A stretch of DNA of 57,032 nt, taken from the IMG/VR virus record IMGVR_UViG_3300017963_000310, positions 1-57,032 of that record; one strand, given 5' to 3'. The translations under genes were made by a program, and so were the position numbers. This DNA is from a virus (lineage: Duplodnaviria > Caudoviricetes). Numbering within the stretch: position 1 is the first letter of the stretch; each line of letters starts with the position of its first letter. The notes beneath the pieces were generated by a model. That model was not told the DNA's origin, did no database searches, and worked only from the letters and a program-made list of their open reading frames with translations. Shown piece by piece: positions 2,478 to 29,432 of this stretch.

Positions 2478-2902
2478 GGCCTACTCCGGTATAACTGCTG
2501 TTCGGTGGTGACGACCCGGTGCAATCGTTGCTCACAGAGCAGCACTACCTCAAACGGGTCGCGTGGGTTGAGCTCGTCCAGTACTCGTAGGGCACTGCCA
2601 CAATGTGGGCAAGGATAGGGCAGTACATCTCCACATATCCGCAGCGCTTCCTCGGGGCTGGTGGCCACCCCGGCTCGAGCTCCCACCGACCGCCAACGTT
2701 TAAGCTGTGCGGCCTGGAGGGGCGTTAGCCGCCCCTCCTTGGTCTTGACCTCGATCGCCACAAACCGACCATGAAAGCAGGCAAACAGATCAGGGCGTCC
2801 ACGTTCGGTATACACTCCGGTGTTTTTGGTAGCGTCGGCCCCCTGATCCTGGATGGCCCGTATGATGGCCCGCACGACCGAGCTTTCAGAAGGGCAAGTC
2901 AT
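2474..2902 (-). CDS. VRR-NUC domain nuclease with C-terminal Cys motif
   Basis: GRPDL...FVAIEVKT..GRLTPLQ; CPHC; adjacent to SNF2 gene as is typical. Confidence 0.88.
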   Translation of the reverse strand: MTCPSESSVVRAIIRAIQDQGADATKNTGVYTERGRPDLFACFHGRFVAIEVKTKEGRLTPLQAAQLKRWRSVGARAGVATSPEEALRICGDVLPYPCPHCGSALRVLDELNPRDPFEVVLLCEQRLHRVVTTEQQLYRSRP

Positions 2903-3614
2903 CGTCCATCCTGGACAAGAACTCGGCTTCTAGCGCAGCCAGGTCTTGGTCGGTCAGCCTGCAGTGCAGGATATAGTTGACCGCAGCCCGGAGATCGGGC
3001 ACCTGCACCACGTCGTGCGCCTCTAGGCTAACTAATGATCCGATCACTATCACCGACTTACCCAGTGCGCGGGCGTATTCAATCTCACGGATAGTACCGA
3101 AGCCCCGGCCCGGGCCCTTTAGGTTGGCTAGCACCAAAGTGCAGTGCTGGATGGCAGCCCGGTTGATGCTGCTAACCGCCTGGGCCATGGCCTGGTGTAC
3201 GTCTTTCAAGTCGGGCAGCTCATAGGCGGTTAGTGGGTTAAAGCAGGCCACCCCTCGCTGGGTTAGTAGCTGCTCAGCCTGATCACGCCAGCAGGCCCCA
3301 TCTACTACGTCGATGTCGTCGATCGGCCCAGCCAGGTACACCATGACCGTGTCGCTGGGCCACTCATCCCGGGCCACCAACAGGGCGATGACGGCATAGC
3401 CTGCGATGTCTTTGATGGTGTCTTCCAGGCTCTCGTTGTCCGGCTGTTGGCCGTTTTGAGCCAGGTTACGCAGGCGCACGATCTTGTCGGTTAGGCGCAT
3501 AGCCACCCCGGGTAGCCCGAGGTGGTATATGTTGTCGCGCGAGTAGTCGCGGCCTTTACCGCCTAGCATCGTGTCTAGCTCGTCTAGTATGGCCTTAATC
3601 TCGGGCGCTGACAT
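2886..3614 (-). CDS. Fusion of DUF1599/Nmad1 (MazG-like all-alpha) domain and nucleoside 2-deoxyribosyltransferase/N-glycosidase-like domain
   Basis: N-term KGRDYS..RLTDKIVRL..ESLEDTIKDIAGYAVI; C-term VYLAGPI..WR..FNP..GTIREIEYARALGKSV; start at MSAPEIK overlapping purZ end. Confidence 0.75.
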   Translation of the reverse strand: MSAPEIKAILDELDTMLGGKGRDYSRDNIYHLGLPGVAMRLTDKIVRLRNLAQNGQQPDNESLEDTIKDIAGYAVIALLVARDEWPSDTVMVYLAGPIDDIDVVDGACWRDQAEQLLTQRGVACFNPLTAYELPDLKDVHQAMAQAVSSINRAAIQHCTLVLANLKGPGRGFGTIREIEYARALGKSVIVIGSLVSLEAHDVVQVPDLRAAVNYILHCRLTDQDLAALEAEFLSRMDDDLPF

Positions 3615-4689
3615 GCGGCACCTCAACGATCGACCACTCTGGCCCCCCGGTCCCAACGAACAGAACCGGTAGATCGAACTCCTGCTCTATCTGGCGCACG
3701 ACTACCCGCCCTTTTTCACTCAGGTCGTCCCAGCGGGTTTTGCCCTCGTCCTCTGGGCTGACGTAGTCCAGGAAGTTGAGCGCCAACCAATGCGGGCCGT
3801 TGACCCGGATGGCGTGTTCCACCAGGCGCGGATTAAACTCGGCCACGCGTCGAACTTTCTTGGTGACGGTGGTGTGCTCCAGCACCGGTCGGCCTACCCG
3901 GGCGCTTAGCTCTTCCCAGCTGATTTCGTCGGCAATCGGCCCGCTGTTGCCACCGACCCGGATCGGGTAGGTACGGATCACCAGGCCCACCTCGGTTACG
4001 GCATGCGGGGGCAGGCCGACGTCGGCGGCGAACTGGGCCGCGTTGGTGTCGTTACTGGTGACGTAGGGCCAGTGGCCATGGATCAAGGACAGCCCAAAGC
4101 CTTGCGCGCCCTCTAACAGGATGCGGCTGTTGGCCTGCCGGGCCTGGTGCAGCCATTGGGCGGTGTCAAGTAGGATACTCTGCAGCGCCCAACCGTTACC
4201 AAGCGTGTGATCGAACGCGACGTCGCGCATGCGCTTAAAATGGTCCGGGTTGCGCCGGATACGATCCAAACGCGCAGCGCCTACGCCTTCACCGGTGGAC
4301 CCGATGCGGGCGTGCAGTTCGCCTTGCGTGCCACCCTCTTCGGCGTGGTGTTGGTGCCCGATGATGCCCGCCCCCAGATCGACCCGCACGCGTTCGTAAA
4401 TGGTGGGGTCGACCTCGGCGATAGCGTCTAGCTCTTGCACTAAGAGCTTGGGGTCGACTAGTGCTCCGGCCCCGATGATGAGCGTAGCCTTGGGGTTAAT
4501 CCACCCACACGGCACGCTCTGCATGGCCCATGTGCGCCCTTGGTGTTTGAAGGAGTGGCCCGCGTTGGGTCCCCCTACCCGGACGTGTACGTCGTACTGT
4601 TGGGCTAGGTACTTAACGATGTTGCCTTTGCCCTCGCTGCCGTACTGGCCACCTATGATAGCTAGGACGGCGGGGTGTTGCTGTTGCAT
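3595..4689 (-). CDS. purZ: PurZ/PurZ0-like 2-amino-deoxyadenylosuccinate synthetase (adenylosuccinate synthetase family)
   Basis: GGQYGSEGKG (Ser at the PurA catalytic Asp position), GGPNAGH, IGSTGEGVG, EGAQG, TYPIRVGGNSGP, TTVTKKVRRV, NFLDY; short 364-aa form. Confidence 0.82.
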   Translation of the reverse strand: MQQQHPAVLAIIGGQYGSEGKGNIVKYLAQQYDVHVRVGGPNAGHSFKHQGRTWAMQSVPCGWINPKATLIIGAGALVDPKLLVQELDAIAEVDPTIYERVRVDLGAGIIGHQHHAEEGGTQGELHARIGSTGEGVGAARLDRIRRNPDHFKRMRDVAFDHTLGNGWALQSILLDTAQWLHQARQANSRILLEGAQGFGLSLIHGHWPYVTSNDTNAAQFAADVGLPPHAVTEVGLVIRTYPIRVGGNSGPIADEISWEELSARVGRPVLEHTTVTKKVRRVAEFNPRLVEHAIRVNGPHWLALNFLDYVSPEDEGKTRWDDLSEKGRVVVRQIEQEFDLPVLFVGTGGPEWSIVEVPHVSARD

Positions 4690-4967
4690 GATGGTTTGTG
4701 CTCCTCTGGTAAGTCGGTAGGTGCTAGGTCTAGTATCTGGTGGACGCTAGACAGGCGGCGCTGGACACCAGCGGCGATGCGCTGGGCACCAGCCTGGGCG
4801 AGTGCCAGGTTTTCACACGCTAAACCGTGCTTATGCTGGTCATCGGCGGTATCGATCAGTAGCTGTAGGTAGTCCAGGTGATCGAGGGCGCTAGCTAGGC
4901 CTTCGAGCATCTCGGGTAACCGTACCAAGTACGGCTGTAGTTGAACATAGCGGTTATCAGTCATCAA
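4662..4967 (-). CDS. Hypothetical helical protein
   Basis: 101-aa ORF overlapping both the polymerase and purZ ends. Confidence 0.6.
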   Translation of the reverse strand: MMTDNRYVQLQPYLVRLPEMLEGLASALDHLDYLQLLIDTADDQHKHGLACENLALAQAGAQRIAAGVQRRLSSVHQILDLAPTDLPEEHKPSCNSNTPPS

Positions 4968-6666
4968 GCATCTCCCCTAGACGCGTGCCGATCTTAACGT
5001 CCACCGCCATCGGGGCGCTGATCCAGCTGGGTACGTCCAGCATGATCTCCTCAACCGCGGCGGCTACCTCGTGTATGCCGTCCAGCGGCGTCTCTATCAG
5101 AAAGTCATCGTGGACCTGCAGCAGTAGATGGGTGTGGTCATCGCATAGCTCCTGGTCGATGCGCATCATGTCTTCGCGCATGATCTCGGCTACTGTGCCC
5201 TGGATGAGATTACTCATCGCTTTGTGGGCGGGGGCTCGTTTCCGGTCGTTGTAGTGCCGCCGTCGTCCGGTGTACAACTGGATGTAACCCCGAGTCTGGG
5301 CTATCCGTTGGGCGCGGTGGTACAGGTCCCGAAAACCGGGATACGCCCCGCGGTGTTGCCCTAGCAGCGCTTGGGCTTCTTTGTATGAGATGTGCAGGTC
5401 GTTAGCTAACGGGCCAGCCCCCATGCCGTACACCATGCCGAAGTTGATGCGTTTAGCAAAGTGCCGCGGTAAGCCTAGCTGCTCGGCGGTCGCGCTGTGT
5501 GGGTCCAGGCCCTGTTCTAACGCCCGGATCAAACCGGTCTCACGGGCATAGTGGGCCCCCACCCGTACCTCGGCTTGTTGGTAGTCGATCGCGATTAAAC
5601 CGTAACCCGGGCGGGCGACGATGACGTCCTTGACCTTGTACACCTCGGTGCGCACCGGCAGCGCTTGCAGGTTGGGGCTGTTGCACGACAGGCGGCTGCT
5701 GACCGTACCGGTGACGTTGAGGTTGGGATGCAGGATGTGTTGCCCGTCCATCTCCTCCAGAAAACGCCGGTAGTAACTGGTCAAGGCCCGGTGCCAGGCC
5801 CGGTAGGTTAGCATCAGCTGCGCGCCGGGGTGATCAGGCATGGTTTCTAATACATCGGCTGCTGAGCTCTGTACACCTAGCCAGGCCTGTACTTGCTTGG
5901 CGCTGCGCGGGTTGAGCTCGTAGCCTGCCAGAGCCTGAATACGGGCTTCGGTGACGGTGTGCTGCTCCTCGCACTCGGCCATGTATTGCTCGATCAGCGG
6001 TACGTCCAACTGCACGCCGTACAGCATCAAGCGGATAATCAGGTGGTTGTACGCGTTGACCTGCAGCCCTAGGTCGTGGAAATACCGCTTAGCCAGGTAT
6101 TGGTGCGCCAGCTCGGCCAGGGCCCAAGTCAGATCGACGTCCTGCACAGCGTACGACTCCACCAAGACAGCCGGTAACTGCCACATGTCGCCCTTGTTTA
6201 AGCCTCCACGCTTACCTAGCGCAGCCTGTAGCTCTCGCTCTTGGGCCTGGGCGTTGCTGTCGATGTACTTAGCCCCTAACTCTTTGAGCTTAAGACTGGG
6301 CTCGTTCTCGTTGAGCAGATGGATCAGGACCATGGTGTCCTCTAGCCGGACGGGGTGCACAGGAAAATCCCAGCCTGCTTGGACCATAAACGCTATATCA
6401 AAGGACCAGTTATGGCCCCGCCATACTGGCGCGTGATAGGTGGCTTCTATCAAAGCGGGTAGTTGTTCGAGCGGTAGGTTGTCCCCCTCTTTGTGCCGGA
6501 AAGGGAAGTAATAGCCTGTGCGTGGGGTACGCACCGCCACCCCGCAGATGCGATCACGGTGTGGCCCCCAGCGCTGTAACCCGGTGGTTTCCAGGTCGAT
6601 AGCTAACATCTCGCTGTTGGCGATGTCCTGCAGGGCGGCCTGAAAATCGGCCTGAGTGACTAGCAT
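4957..6666 (-). CDS. Family A DNA polymerase with 3'-5' exonuclease
   Basis: Exo DLETTG, HNWSFD, YAVQD; TGTVSSRLSCNSPNLQ; motif A DYQQAEVR; motif B AKRINFGMVYG; motif C QVHDD. Confidence 0.95.
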   Translation of the reverse strand: MLVTQADFQAALQDIANSEMLAIDLETTGLQRWGPHRDRICGVAVRTPRTGYYFPFRHKEGDNLPLEQLPALIEATYHAPVWRGHNWSFDIAFMVQAGWDFPVHPVRLEDTMVLIHLLNENEPSLKLKELGAKYIDSNAQAQERELQAALGKRGGLNKGDMWQLPAVLVESYAVQDVDLTWALAELAHQYLAKRYFHDLGLQVNAYNHLIIRLMLYGVQLDVPLIEQYMAECEEQHTVTEARIQALAGYELNPRSAKQVQAWLGVQSSAADVLETMPDHPGAQLMLTYRAWHRALTSYYRRFLEEMDGQHILHPNLNVTGTVSSRLSCNSPNLQALPVRTEVYKVKDVIVARPGYGLIAIDYQQAEVRVGAHYARETGLIRALEQGLDPHSATAEQLGLPRHFAKRINFGMVYGMGAGPLANDLHISYKEAQALLGQHRGAYPGFRDLYHRAQRIAQTRGYIQLYTGRRRHYNDRKRAPAHKAMSNLIQGTVAEIMREDMMRIDQELCDDHTHLLLQVHDDFLIETPLDGIHEVAAAVEEIMLDVPSWISAPMAVDVKIGTRLGEMLDD

Positions 6667-18684: not shown

Positions 18685-18894
18685 CTACGTGCGCCATTCA
18701 GGCGAACGCTCAAAGGTGGGCGCGGGGATCGGCGGTACATCGCCGCGGGCCATCCGGTGCGCGTGATCCAGGCAGTAGTGGCCTGGGATAGGGGTGGGAT
18801 TGGAGCAGCCGGGCCACTGGCACGGGTTCCAATCTTTGCGGGGCTGCTGGTCGGGCAGCTGGCTATAGTTCGGGTTAACCACCTTACGGGACAT
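18685..18894 (-). CDS. Small Zn-finger-like protein
   Basis: CQWPGC..YCLDH; GAGGAGG RBS. Confidence 0.6.
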   Translation of the reverse strand: MSRKVVNPNYSQLPDQQPRKDWNPCQWPGCSNPTPIPGHYCLDHAHRMARGDVPPIPAPTFERSPEWRT

Positions 18895-18925
18895 ACAAAA
18901 TCCTCCTCTCACCTAACCGGACGGT

Positions 18926-18947
18926 AAAAAGGGCGGCGGGGCCGCCC
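18926..18947 (-). terminator. Intrinsic terminator downstream of the mini-tmRNA
   Basis: Minus strand GGGCGG-CCCCG-CCGCCC-TTTTT. Confidence 0.8.
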
Positions 18948-18956
18948 TGTAATGCG

Positions 18957-19068
18957 TGGTGGACGTGCCCGGAGTTGAACCGGGGTCTTGATCACGGGTG
19001 GTGGGCTGCGGGGTGTTGTGTGTCAGCGGCTGCAGCCCGCCCATGCCAATCGATGGCCTGTCACGCCC
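18957..19068 (-). ncRNA. tmRNA-like RNA reduced to the tRNA-like domain (112 nt, Ala identity, encoded CCA)
   Basis: 5' GGGCGTG pairs with 3' CACGTCC-A-CCA giving G3.U70; T arm CCCGG-TTCAACT-CCGGG preceded by AGAC; stemless D-loop ACAGGCCATCGA; long helix in place of anticodon arm. Confidence 0.78.
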
Positions 19069-19571
19069 TACGAAAGCGCTTGGATCAGCTCGTCGATGTT
19101 GCATTCCTGGCTGCCCAGGTAGTGGTGGTTCTGGCTGGCGCACATCTCGAGCGTGGGCAGGATGTAGGCCCGGGCGCGGCCTTGCTCCTCGGTGCCTTGG
19201 GTAGCCTGCTGGATCAGCCCGATGGCTGACAGTAGGTGATCGCGCGCTTCTTCCAGCTGCAGCACGCGCTCGTCCCGCTCATGCTGGGCTACGGCTTCGG
19301 CATGCAGCTCAATCTCGGCAGCGACGAGGTCCACACCATAGACCCATATCATCCAGTGACTGAGGGGGCTTTCTCGGTTCTCCAACCAGACCAGCCGGAC
19401 ATCGCCGTCCAATGTCTGGGTCAGCTGGCGGTAGTCCTCACGTGTGCCGTCCGTCTTGATGTAGAAGTAGATAAACGGGCCACACTGGGTCATGCGCTGC
19501 ACGACGGCGTACTCGCGGGTGTTATATTCCTCAACAATGTCTTGCGCGTGAGTGTCGATGTCGATGGTCAT
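19068..19571 (-). CDS. Hypothetical early protein
   Basis: 167-aa ORF with CCCAGGAGG RBS below P6; last base of its TAG is G1 of the ncRNA. Confidence 0.7.
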   Translation of the reverse strand: MTIDIDTHAQDIVEEYNTREYAVVQRMTQCGPFIYFYIKTDGTREDYRQLTQTLDGDVRLVWLENRESPLSHWMIWVYGVDLVAAEIELHAEAVAQHERDERVLQLEEARDHLLSAIGLIQQATQGTEEQGRARAYILPTLEMCASQNHHYLGSQECNIDELIQALS

Positions 19572-19607: not shown

Positions 19608-19653
19608 ATTATACCACGCCTTGCGTCTCGTGTCAATAGTACTCTGGTACTAT
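19608..19653 (-). promoter_or_regulatory. Repeated early promoter P6 plus operator
   Basis: -10 at 19608-13, -35 at 19631-36, palindrome 19636-19653. Confidence 0.9.
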
Positions 19654-27229: not shown

Positions 27230-27258
27230 TTGACAGATTAGCTAAGCCGTGATTTAAT
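27230..27258 (+). promoter_or_regulatory. Rightward promoter TTGACA-17-TTTAAT for the morphogenesis arm
   Basis: TTGACA 27230-35, TTTAAT 27253-58; no GTAC operator, but TAACG-N4-CGTTA lies just upstream. Confidence 0.75.
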
Positions 27259-28051: not shown

Positions 28052-29432
28052 CGTCCCCCAGTGGGCGGCGGTACTGTCGCCTGCTGATGAGTTGTTTTAT
28101 GGTGGGGCGGCTGGTGGTGGCAAAACCGATCTATCGTTGGCGCTCGGGCTGTTCGCCCATCGCCGGGCCATCATCTTTCGACGTGAGTACACCCAGTTTC
28201 GAGATGTGATCGACCGGGGCAACGAGCTCCTCTCACATCTCGGCATTAGCTTTAACGCGCTGCGGGCGCGATGGGAGCTACCCAACGGGGCGTGGTTAGA
28301 ACTCGGGGCGGTGGACCATCCCAAGGACCTTAACAAGTATAAAGGGCGGCCCCACGATCTGATCGCGATAGATGAGGCGGCGGATATGCCCGAGTGGTGG
28401 GTCCGGTTTCTGAGCGCGTGGAAGCGCACCACGGACCCCAACCAGCGCACCCGTACTCTACTATGCGGCAACCCACCCACAGACAGCCAGGGCGAGTGGA
28501 TCATCCAGTATTTTGCTCCGTGGTTGGACGAGGACCACCCCAACCCAGCCAAGCCAGGTGAACTACGCTGGTTCGTGGCGATGGATGGCAAAGACCACGA
28601 GGTCGAGGGACCAGAACCCGTGGCGCACAAGGGCGAGAGCCTGCAGCCGATCTCTCGTTCCTTTATACCGGCCCTGTTGAAGGATAACCCGTTCTTACGC
28701 AACACCGGCTACGAGGGCGTGCTACAGGCTTTGCCCGAACCGTTGCGCAGCAAGCTACTGTTCGGTGATTTCGGCGCGGCGGCCATACCGAACCCGTGGC
28801 AGGTCATCCCCACCGAGTGGGTCAAGCTGGCCCAGGCCCGGTATAAGCGGGGCAAACGACCGGATTTAGCGCTGCGGGCGGTCGGGCTGGACGTGTCGCG
28901 CGGGGGCAAGGATCACACCGTAGCAGCGCGGCTATACCATGAGTGGTTCGAGACCGACGCTTGGCCGGGGGTCGAGATCAAGGACGGGCCCGCGGCAGCT
29001 GACCGGACGATCGCGCTACTGATGAACGACGGGCCCGCACCAATCGGGGTGGATGTGATTGGGTGGGGATCAAGCGCGTTCGACTTCCTGGTGTTTCACG
29101 GCATGGATGCCTACCCGGTCAACGTCAGCGACGGCACCACCGAGACGGACTCGACTGGGAAGTTTCGGTTTGCCAACATACGGGCGTTGATGCATTGGCG
29201 GATGAGAGAGGCGCTGGACCCCAACGGGCCACACGCCATCGCCCTGCCTCCAGGTCGGCGGATACGCACCGACCTATGCGCGGCCCGGTACACCGTGATC
29301 AAGTCGGGCATTAAGATCGAGAGTAAAGAGGCGATCGTGGACCGGCTGAAATACTCGCCTGACTGGGGCGACGCGATCATGCTAGCGTGGTACATCGCCC
29401 ACCACAGCGCACCCGGGATTAGCTTTAGCTAG
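27903..29432 (+). CDS. terL: Terminase large subunit
   Basis: YGGAAGGGKT Walker A, IAIDEA Walker B, GNPP, GLDVSRGGKD, SPDWGDA; start could also be ATG at 28020. Confidence 0.93.
   Translation: MTIASQADSTALLSSLPRDTLTAWLSSLKPSELCYLQAVMDGTALWVPRSVPQWAAVLSPADELFYGGAAGGGKTDLSLALGLFAHRRAIIFRREYTQFRDVIDRGNELLSHLGISFNALRARWELPNGAWLELGAVDHPKDLNKYKGRPHDLIAIDEAADMPEWWVRFLSAWKRTTDPNQRTRTLLCGNPPTDSQGEWIIQYFAPWLDEDHPNPAKPGELRWFVAMDGKDHEVEGPEPVAHKGESLQPISRSFIPALLKDNPFLRNTGYEGVLQALPEPLRSKLLFGDFGAAAIPNPWQVIPTEWVKLAQARYKRGKRPDLALRAVGLDVSRGGKDHTVAARLYHEWFETDAWPGVEIKDGPAAADRTIALLMNDGPAPIGVDVIGWGSSAFDFLVFHGMDAYPVNVSDGTTETDSTGKFRFANIRALMHWRMREALDPNGPHAIALPPGRRIRTDLCAARYTVIKSGIKIESKEAIVDRLKYSPDWGDAIMLAWYIAHHSAPGISFS

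Follow-up and report, generated by a model that had tools for sequence, protein, structure and literature searches.

Trans-translation, the pathway of transfer-messenger RNA (tmRNA) and SmpB, is nearly universal in bacteria. To our knowledge, the ways in which phages handle this pathway are poorly known. Here we describe an RNA gene of 112 nucleotides (nt) at positions 18957 to 19068, minus strand, of a phage DNA record (IMG/VR virus record IMGVR_UViG_3300017963_000310, positions 1 to 57,032; Duplodnaviria, Caudoviricetes). The whole stretch of 57,032 nt that was analysed is referred to below as the window. The gene is very probably a real tmRNA-derived RNA gene that carries no tag.

The closest described system is that of mycobacteriophage DS6A, whose tmRNA is recorded on the tmRNA Website. 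In a listing of tmRNAs it appears as 'Mycobacterium phage DS6A (TLD only)', i.e., as a tRNA-like domain (TLD), and the accompanying passage states that a DS6A-like molecule, chargeable or not, strongly inhibited tmRNA, perhaps through titration of SmpB, for which Mao et al. 2009 is cited (PMC4131195). A passage of a second paper likewise reports that the DS6A form inhibited endogenous tmRNA in Escherichia coli (PMC11915505). For the curated tmRNA database, that paper also counts only 9 'Standard, no CDS' sequences (CDS, coding sequence) among 97,179, as well as 79 bacteriophage sequences, and it argues that a CDS-less mitochondrial tmRNA, retained together with SmpB, still helps with incomplete mRNAs (PMC11915505).

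A preliminary description of the window, made from the sequence alone, had proposed that the gene corresponds to the tRNA-like domain of tmRNA without pseudoknots or a normal tag region. This identity is borne out by the analyses below. The finding is less novel than that description assumed; titration of SmpB is already in print for a DS6A-type molecule, as the passages cited above attest (PMC4131195, PMC11915505).

Identification of a tRNA-like domain of tmRNA

RNA positions (p) in this gene convert to window coordinates as 19069-p. The gene and its parts are the following.

18957-19068, minus strand: tag-less mini-tmRNA gene, 112 nt, found with covariance model R1, with RF00023 and with a motif pattern (see below)
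19062-19068, minus strand: acceptor stem, 5' strand GGGCGUG; 7 of 7 pairs with 18961-18967, including G3.U70
18957-18967, minus strand: acceptor stem, 3' strand CACGUCC (18961-18967), discriminator A and encoded CCA (18957-18960)
19050-19061, minus strand: stemless 12-nt D loop, ACAGGCCAUCGA, with GG and UCGA motifs; UCGA aligns to the tmRNA consensus UCGA
19040-19049, minus strand: helix P2, 5' strand UUGGCAUGGG; 10 standard pairs with 18988-18998, one bulged A
18988-18998, minus strand: helix P2, 3' strand CCCGUG(A)UCAA; includes the UGA that closes the open frame of the preliminary description
19003-19038, minus strand: P2b hairpin, GGGCUGC / GCAGCCC, 7 bp with a 22-nt loop (19010-19031); pair probabilities 0.985-1.0
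18985-18987, minus strand: GAC linker 5' of the T arm (within AGAC), invariant in a 14-sequence alignment and aligned to the GAC of RF00023
18968-18984, minus strand: T arm CCCGG-UUCAACU-CCGGG; 5 of 5 pairs

The acceptor stem with G3.U70, the discriminator A, the CCA, the T arm after AGAC and the stemless D loop ending in UCGA can thus all be read on the minus strand, as first proposed, and what had been called an irregular helix closing a loop of about 22 nt consists of P2 and the P2b hairpin beyond it. Across the acceptor stem (P1), P2 and the T arm, 22 pairs are intact, with 7 more in P2b, and the acceptor and T stems consist of standard pairs throughout (12 of 12). In the tmRNA-like fold, the D region has no stem, ends in UCGA and lies directly next to P2. 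The pseudoknots PK1-PK4 are absent, and the interior folds as a single hairpin. Two DNA read sets, apparently one data set, contain no variant inside the gene.

Standard annotation tools pass over this gene. ARAGORN called no tRNA gene, no tmRNA gene and no tag on the whole window, Rfam at gathering thresholds gave no match on the whole window, and neither did a search of the window with RF00023, the one-piece tmRNA model. When a stretch of 351 nt was searched against Rfam at E<=10, the only match was one of 13 bits to tmRNA_permuted, spanning the T arm and an acceptor strand. With RF00023 on a stretch of 116 nt alone and laxer filters, the gene scored 26.6 bits (E=1.3e-9 for that small search). 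In this alignment, model positions 1-374 fall on 18957-19068 of the minus strand, with 54 nt in place of 316 central positions, and the tmRNA model is the match retained among the overlapping matches of its clan. A match to both tmRNA ends with a central deletion had been predicted, and it was obtained, at a score below the gathering cut-off.

A covariance model built for the phage elements themselves gave a stronger signal. This model, R1, was built from 14 other phage elements, with the window element excluded. With filters off, it matched 18957-19068 (minus strand) over its full length at 50.8 bits (E=1.3e-11), and the next-best match in the window reached 14.7 bits. As a control, seven Bdellovibrionales tRNA-Ala(GGC) genes with the same T loop and 3' acceptor strand scored 24.7 bits; therefore, about 26 bits of the window score come from tmRNA-specific features. 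Across other loci, R1 gave 48.9-111.9 bits for the elements of the class alignment described below, about 35 bits or less for ordinary tRNAs, and at most 43.7 bits for pattern matches with imperfect stems.

The gene is no better described as an ordinary tRNA, given the ARAGORN result, the retained tmRNA clan match and the scores of the tRNA-Ala controls. No tRNA family appeared among the Rfam matches of the 351-nt or the 116-nt stretch, and a cloverleaf with a D stem and an anticodon arm was not found. A chance resemblance in G+C-rich DNA would be consistent with the modest folding energy of the whole molecule, whose z-score is only -1.63, with 10 of 200 shuffles folding equally well. Yet the motif pattern for the single-stranded hallmarks of the gene has one match in the window and none in 100 dinucleotide-preserving shuffles, and the two E values and the complete set of 12 stem pairs given above likewise speak against chance, which we regard as very unlikely.

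A class of tag-less phage tmRNAs

A scan of IMG/VR with the motif pattern returned at least 117 stretches. In the loci collected, the matches listed include 166 pattern matches; in 22 of these, all 7 pairs of the acceptor stem and all 5 pairs of the T stem are formed. One of the 22 is the window itself, and another (L040; loci are given by our own numbers) was discarded as two adjacent tRNAs. Among the matches listed, 20 loci remain, and the elements in them represent 17 distinct sequences, 98-127 nt in length. A second IMG/VR scan, with the T loop fixed to the window sequence, found only 5 stretches in the whole collection; 4 of them were already known, and the first scan therefore reached most of the collection.

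ARAGORN called no tmRNA at any of the 20 loci. Of 15 loci searched with RF00023, 14 had a match to model positions 1-374 above the cut-off, at 49.1-75.6 bits, and L057 was missed. R1 further recovered shorter forms of 81-83 nt in L014, L031, L021, L076 and L058. Together, the class comprises 26 distinct elements of 81-127 nt, i.e., the window element, that of DS6A and 24 others found on contigs of uncultured phages. Clustering at 80% identity gives 22 groups, and no other element is more than 65% identical to that of the window. Examples of class members are L089:2544-2655(-), L062:889-1000(+), L014:6686-6766(+) and L021:1490-1572(-).

When the 26 elements are aligned to R1, 94.1% of the modelled pair cells hold standard pairs, compared with 64.5% in shuffled alignments and 45-53% when the partners are slid. 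Of the 22 modelled pairs, 19 change on both sides, which is the covariation among phage homologues that had been called for; it is covariation at the level of the class, across 22 clusters, in which the window element is represented without a close relative. Covariation is seen at each of the 8 main P2 pairs and at each of the 5 T-arm pairs, the latter being 100% paired. G1-C72, G2-C71 and G3.U70 are present in 26 of 26 elements, as is the discriminator A; CCA is present in 25, the exception being DS6A with CUA. As far as the alignment goes, compensatory change across the 22 lineages shows that selection acts on the class.

Several observations weigh against this assignment. The RF00023 score of 26.6 bits lies below the Rfam gathering cut-off of 47, and both ARAGORN and the whole-window Rfam searches miss the gene. 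The minimum free energy structure is not the tmRNA-like fold: it is better by 1.6 kcal/mol (-43.6 versus -42.0 kcal/mol in the nearest-neighbour model, hence near-isoenergetic), and in it the D region is paired to the 5' side of P2. The tmRNA-like fold is preferred because the class covariance model supports it, not on thermodynamic grounds. The GG of the D loop is one base away from the class consensus, and the P2b hairpin with its 22-nt loop has no homologue and is lineage-specific, the nearest relative (L124) having a different interior. Finally, the class members were found through a pattern derived from the window element, and 17 of the sequences were pre-filtered for perfect P1 and T stems. 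This makes the pairing of P1 and of the T arm, as well as part of the R1 score, circular to some extent. Three lines of evidence are not: the pairing of P2, which was unconstrained; U70, since the filter allowed C or U opposite G3; and the Rfam matches, which are independent.

The most divergent members, among them the window element and that of DS6A, fall below the Rfam cut-off. The misses of ARAGORN and the Rfam scores below cut-off imply that phage annotation probably under-counts mini-tmRNAs. The size of the class suggests that this kind of RNA is much commoner in uncultured phages than the literature indicates; the only statements on tag-less phage tmRNAs that we found there concern DS6A, and a fuller published list may exist.

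Close relatives of the window element were sought separately. A blastn search with 3 kb around the RNA gene gave no match, near or distant, in cultured phages, blastn with the element gave only short T-arm matches, and an exact 25-mer had no match in viral contigs. With the primase-polymerase (PrimPol) of the window as query, one distant locus was found (L002), which has no tRNA-like gene. A pattern keyed to the acceptor stem of the window element retrieved L021, L123, L124 and L125 (L126 being the same as L123). In these four, the acceptor stem is common by construction and the interiors are different. L123 scored 34.5 bits and L125 40.4 bits with R1, L124 was not reported with default filters, and these three were left out of the class alignment. 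L124:823-922(+), on a metagenome contig of 1528 nt, is a 100-nt element whose first 9 and last 30 nt are identical to those of the window element; its interior is unrelated, and CAC replaces GAC. As to the host, the 3' motif is ambiguous, as it matches Bdellovibrionales tRNA-Ala genes and the tmRNAs of Clostridia and Opitutaceae alike.

Absence of a tag frame

The preliminary description had read an open frame across the loop, AAAADTQHPAAHHP-stop, and considered it a possible vestigial tag. The frame reads as stated; it has 14 codons, overlaps the P2b helix over most of its length and terminates within P2, on the 3' strand. Its interpretation as a tag did not hold up. None of the 25 other elements contains a counterpart, the interiors vary from 16 to 61 nt, stop positions are not conserved, and between P2 and the 3' end, 3 of the 26 elements are free of stops in all frames. 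With no conserved tag frame, no tag from ARAGORN, and neither a resume codon nor an in-frame stop found as in a tag frame, we rejected the tag hypothesis as unsupported. The 14-codon frame is best read as chance.

Transcription unit and genomic context

The gene appears to be the last part of a short transcription unit, whose other features are the following.

19608-19636, minus strand: sigma-70 consensus promoter, TTGACA-17-TATAAT with TG; 12 of 12 hexamer matches
19068-19571, minus strand: open reading frame ORF167, 167 amino acids; stop codon TAG at 19068-19070, its last base being G1 of the RNA
18926-18948, minus strand: intrinsic terminator, 8-bp G+C-rich hairpin with CCC loop and U5; begins 9 nt past CCA

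Both control elements had been noted before, the promoter one gene upstream of the RNA and the terminator after it, and both are present. A promoter upstream of ORF167 and a terminator past the CCA define a unit of promoter, ORF167, RNA and terminator. The terminator hairpin has a folding energy of -17.1 kcal/mol (z = -3.3), with 0 of 200 shuffles folding equally well; a generic terminator scan of the window did not list this hairpin at 18948-18926.

The promoter, a perfect consensus, is one of nine related copies that share a spacer, e.g., CGAGGCTCAAGATGTGG; 6 of the copies are perfect and 3 have one mismatch, against 0.03 expected by chance. Eight of the nine copies are on the minus strand between 12085 and 19636 and drive a leftward block of small genes; the ninth is on the plus strand at 27230-27258. 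Copies of this family interrupt the metagenome assembly graph. ORF167 has no relative but itself at E<=0.001 among 5.8 billion proteins and none in viral contigs, and it matches no Pfam family and no PHROG family and has no usable Atlas match.

The window, a virus record estimated at 74% completeness, encodes terminase, portal and capsid proteins on its plus strand; its replication genes lie on the minus strand. Its nearest cultured terminases, at 41-47% identity, are those of phages of Limnohabitans, Acidovorax, Acinetobacter and Bordetella. No SmpB, no tyrosine integrase and no resolvase was found in the window.

The last observation bears on the possibility that the element is a non-functional remnant, either a tmRNA gene in decay or an attP-type copy of the host's gene for tmRNA or tRNA-Ala. 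In its favour, tmRNA genes are frequent sites of phage integration, the 3' motif of the element occurs in bacterial tmRNAs and tRNA-Ala genes, and, the record being incomplete, an integrase could lie outside it. Against this stand the presence of both halves of the gene with all its 22 + 7 pairs intact, the fact that no integrase or resolvase was found in the window, the promoter-terminator unit of its own, and the compensatory change across 22 lineages. A true fragment of the attachment-site (att) type, in L139, keeps only the 3' part. The attP hypothesis, which the preliminary description had named as a way to be wrong, was therefore rejected, and a remnant of any sort is very improbable. 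The fragment in question (L139:3667-3691(-)) is a lone tmRNA 3' fragment about 3.9 kb from a full tmRNA gene (L134:7546-7904(-)) on the same contig of an Opitutus metagenome-assembled genome (MAG); it looks like an att duplication left by an integrated element.

Other genes in the window deserve mention. Just downstream of the terminator, the product of a small gene at 18688-18912(-) weakly resembles a PHROG of HNH endonucleases (E=6.4e-4). At 3598-4689(-), an adenylosuccinate-synthetase-like gene is 35-38% identical to PurA-like/PurZ proteins of Gordonia, Arthrobacter and Microbacterium phages, and it is flanked by a nucleoside deoxyribosyltransferase/DUF1599 gene (2889-3656(-)) and a family A DNA polymerase gene (4960-6666(-)). 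Judging from these genes, the phage may have 2-aminoadenine DNA (Z-genome).

Neighbours of the elements at other loci

The position next to an open reading frame recurs elsewhere in the class. Of 29 elements, 10 begin 0-21 nt after an open frame of 62-380 codons on the same strand. Overlap with the stop codon is found only in the window element; the 9 others begin 1-21 nt past the long open frame. Genes for tRNAs are present at 9 of the 20 loci examined. In L114 and L057 the element stands between same-strand tRNA genes, and in L071 a tRNA-Tyr gene follows the element after 4 nt. Immediately before its element, L071 encodes (at 4301-5149(+)) a polynucleotide kinase-phosphatase (HAD_PNKP, E=1.6e-48), an enzyme of the tRNA-repair type, and L057 has an open frame homologous to it within 4 kb of the element. 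A zinc-ribbon metallophosphoesterase, recognised by Pfam with weak scores, is the product of the upstream gene in both L019 and L116. Two further RNAs scored above the Rfam gathering cut-off at these loci, an abiF RNA in L071 (6302-6338(-), 55.2 bits) and a Pistol ribozyme in L062 (10932-11017(-), 39.5 bits).

These neighbourhoods would fit an SmpB-independent role, in which the element serves as bait for a host nuclease or for a defence sensor specific to tRNA-Ala or tmRNA, or else sets the 3' end of the ORF167 mRNA by offering a site to RNase P. The close spacing behind open frames, with G1 of the window element inside the ORF167 stop, and the repair-type enzyme near two of the elements are in its favour. 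However, the features conserved in the class are specific to tmRNA (UCGA, GAC and P2) and not those of a generic tRNA shape, and no association with defence or anti-defence genes was found among the neighbours. Such a decoy or processing element is accordingly an improbable explanation, if a better one than a remnant. No partner protein emerged either: terminase was the only neighbour family common to 3 lineages.

Possible function

It is established tRNA and tmRNA biology that RNase P cleaves such RNAs, that G3.U70 and A73 direct alanylation, and that SmpB and EF-Tu bind the tRNA-like domain. On this basis, the window gene would represent a phage tmRNA that has lost its coding part and kept the tRNA-like domain and P2, now closed by a hairpin. 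The RNA would be co-transcribed with ORF167 from the strong consensus promoter, end at the terminator 9 nt past the CCA, and be cut by RNase P at G1, as tRNAs are. Alanyl-tRNA synthetase would charge it through G3.U70 and A73, and SmpB and EF-Tu would bind it as they bind tmRNA; the SmpB would be that of the host because the window encodes none. By competing with the host tmRNA for SmpB and stalled ribosomes, the RNA would suppress proteolysis tagging during infection.

Competition with the host tmRNA is proposed because the experiments on DS6A-type molecules, in the passages cited, report inhibition (PMC4131195, PMC11915505). It is the most likely net effect because the RNA has no resume codon and no stop codon. 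For the explanation as a whole, a phage tmRNA without coding part that acts as a charged competitor of host tmRNA for SmpB, we estimate a probability of about 0.45. Taken by itself, the view that inhibition or competition is the main function of the window RNA draws on analogy with DS6A and is likewise tentative, a little short of an even chance.

The conserved charging signals complicate this picture. The invariant G3.U70 and A73 and the near-invariant CCA argue for selection on charging, and a pure SmpB sponge would not need charging, the DS6A-like molecule having been inhibitory in either state according to the passage cited (PMC4131195); a role on the ribosome is therefore favoured. The alignment thus suggests that the RNA may act charged and on ribosomes.

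The same signals keep a second mechanism, tag-free rescue, a serious rival. Here the charged RNA, with SmpB and EF-Tu, would enter the stalled ribosome and accept the nascent chain on its alanine; the ribosome would then be freed by drop-off or by a stop-independent release factor, so that ribosomes are recycled and no proteolysis mark is added. In the 26 elements, the alanine identity set and CCA vary little or not at all, which suggests that charging matters, and tRNA genes at 9 of 20 loci, adjoining the element in L114, L071 and L057, are the usual setting of genes that support translation. A helping role has also been argued for the CDS-less mitochondrial tmRNA, in the passage mentioned in the introduction (PMC11915505). 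On the other hand, an RNA with neither resume codon nor stop codon offers no known route of release, and the neighbours of the elements include no recurrent gene for a hydrolase or a release-factor-like protein. The sole experimental statement in the passages cited is one of inhibition, not rescue (PMC4131195, PMC11915505). We consider tag-free rescue unlikely, and clearly less likely than the competitor.

In a bolder reading, these RNAs would form a widespread, selected phage class that acts charged on the ribosome and not as sponges, and the window gene would in addition be wired in cis to ORF167. As G1 is the last base of the ORF167 stop codon, RNase P cleavage would leave an mRNA ending in UA, with an incomplete stop. 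If so, the fate of ORF167 would hinge on trans-translation, the very pathway with which the RNA interferes. This combination is somewhat less likely still than tag-free rescue. Whichever mechanism applies, the conserved charging signals raise the question of whether phages block ribosome rescue or take it over.

Comparison with known systems

Ordinary tRNA-Ala genes resemble the window element in having the same alanine identity set, and those of Bdellovibrionales (tRNA-Ala(GGC)) have the same T loop and 3' strand, CACGUCCACCA. They differ in that the window element has no D stem, anticodon arm or variable loop, and it is not called by ARAGORN. The att-site tmRNA fragment of the Opitutus MAG has the same kind of 3' end, with T arm, acceptor strand and CCA. 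Such fragments are without the 5' acceptor strand, D loop and P2, all of which the window element has.

Canonical one-piece tmRNA (RF00023) aligns with the window element at the acceptor stem, UCGA, the start of P2, GAC, the T arm and ACCA. In contrast, its pseudoknots, resume codon, tag frame and helix 5 are replaced in the window element by 54 nt. The CDS-less organellar tmRNAs described for jakobid mitochondria and for Mallomonadaceae plastids (about 65 bp) are likewise reduced and have no tag frame, according to the passages of PMC11915505 on them. They differ in not being viral, and the mitochondrial genes are usually permuted (same passages, PMC11915505). The Rfam mitochondrial tmRNA model had no reported match on the stretches with the window element.

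The DS6A element is the best counterpart. Using R1, we located it at 28478-28560(+) of JN698994 (L121), between gp33 and gp34, where neither the GenBank nor the RefSeq record has an annotation for it. It is 83 nt long with a 20-nt interior, whereas the window element has 112 nt, with an additional 7-bp hairpin and 22-nt loop. DS6A ends in CUA instead of CCA and has CAC instead of GAC, blastn detects no similarity between the two elements, and DS6A encodes a tyrosine integrase, of which none was found in the window. In the features that define the kind, the two agree. Both are phage-encoded and have an acceptor stem with G3.U70, a discriminator A, a T arm, a stemless D loop, and P2 with a short hairpin, with no tag, and both RNAs closely follow a same-strand open frame. 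Their scores are also close, with 54.6 bits for DS6A and 50.8 bits for the window element with R1, and 34.7 and 26.6 bits, each below the cut-off, with RF00023. The window element is thus a divergent further case of a known, barely studied kind of molecule, the tag-less phage tmRNA.

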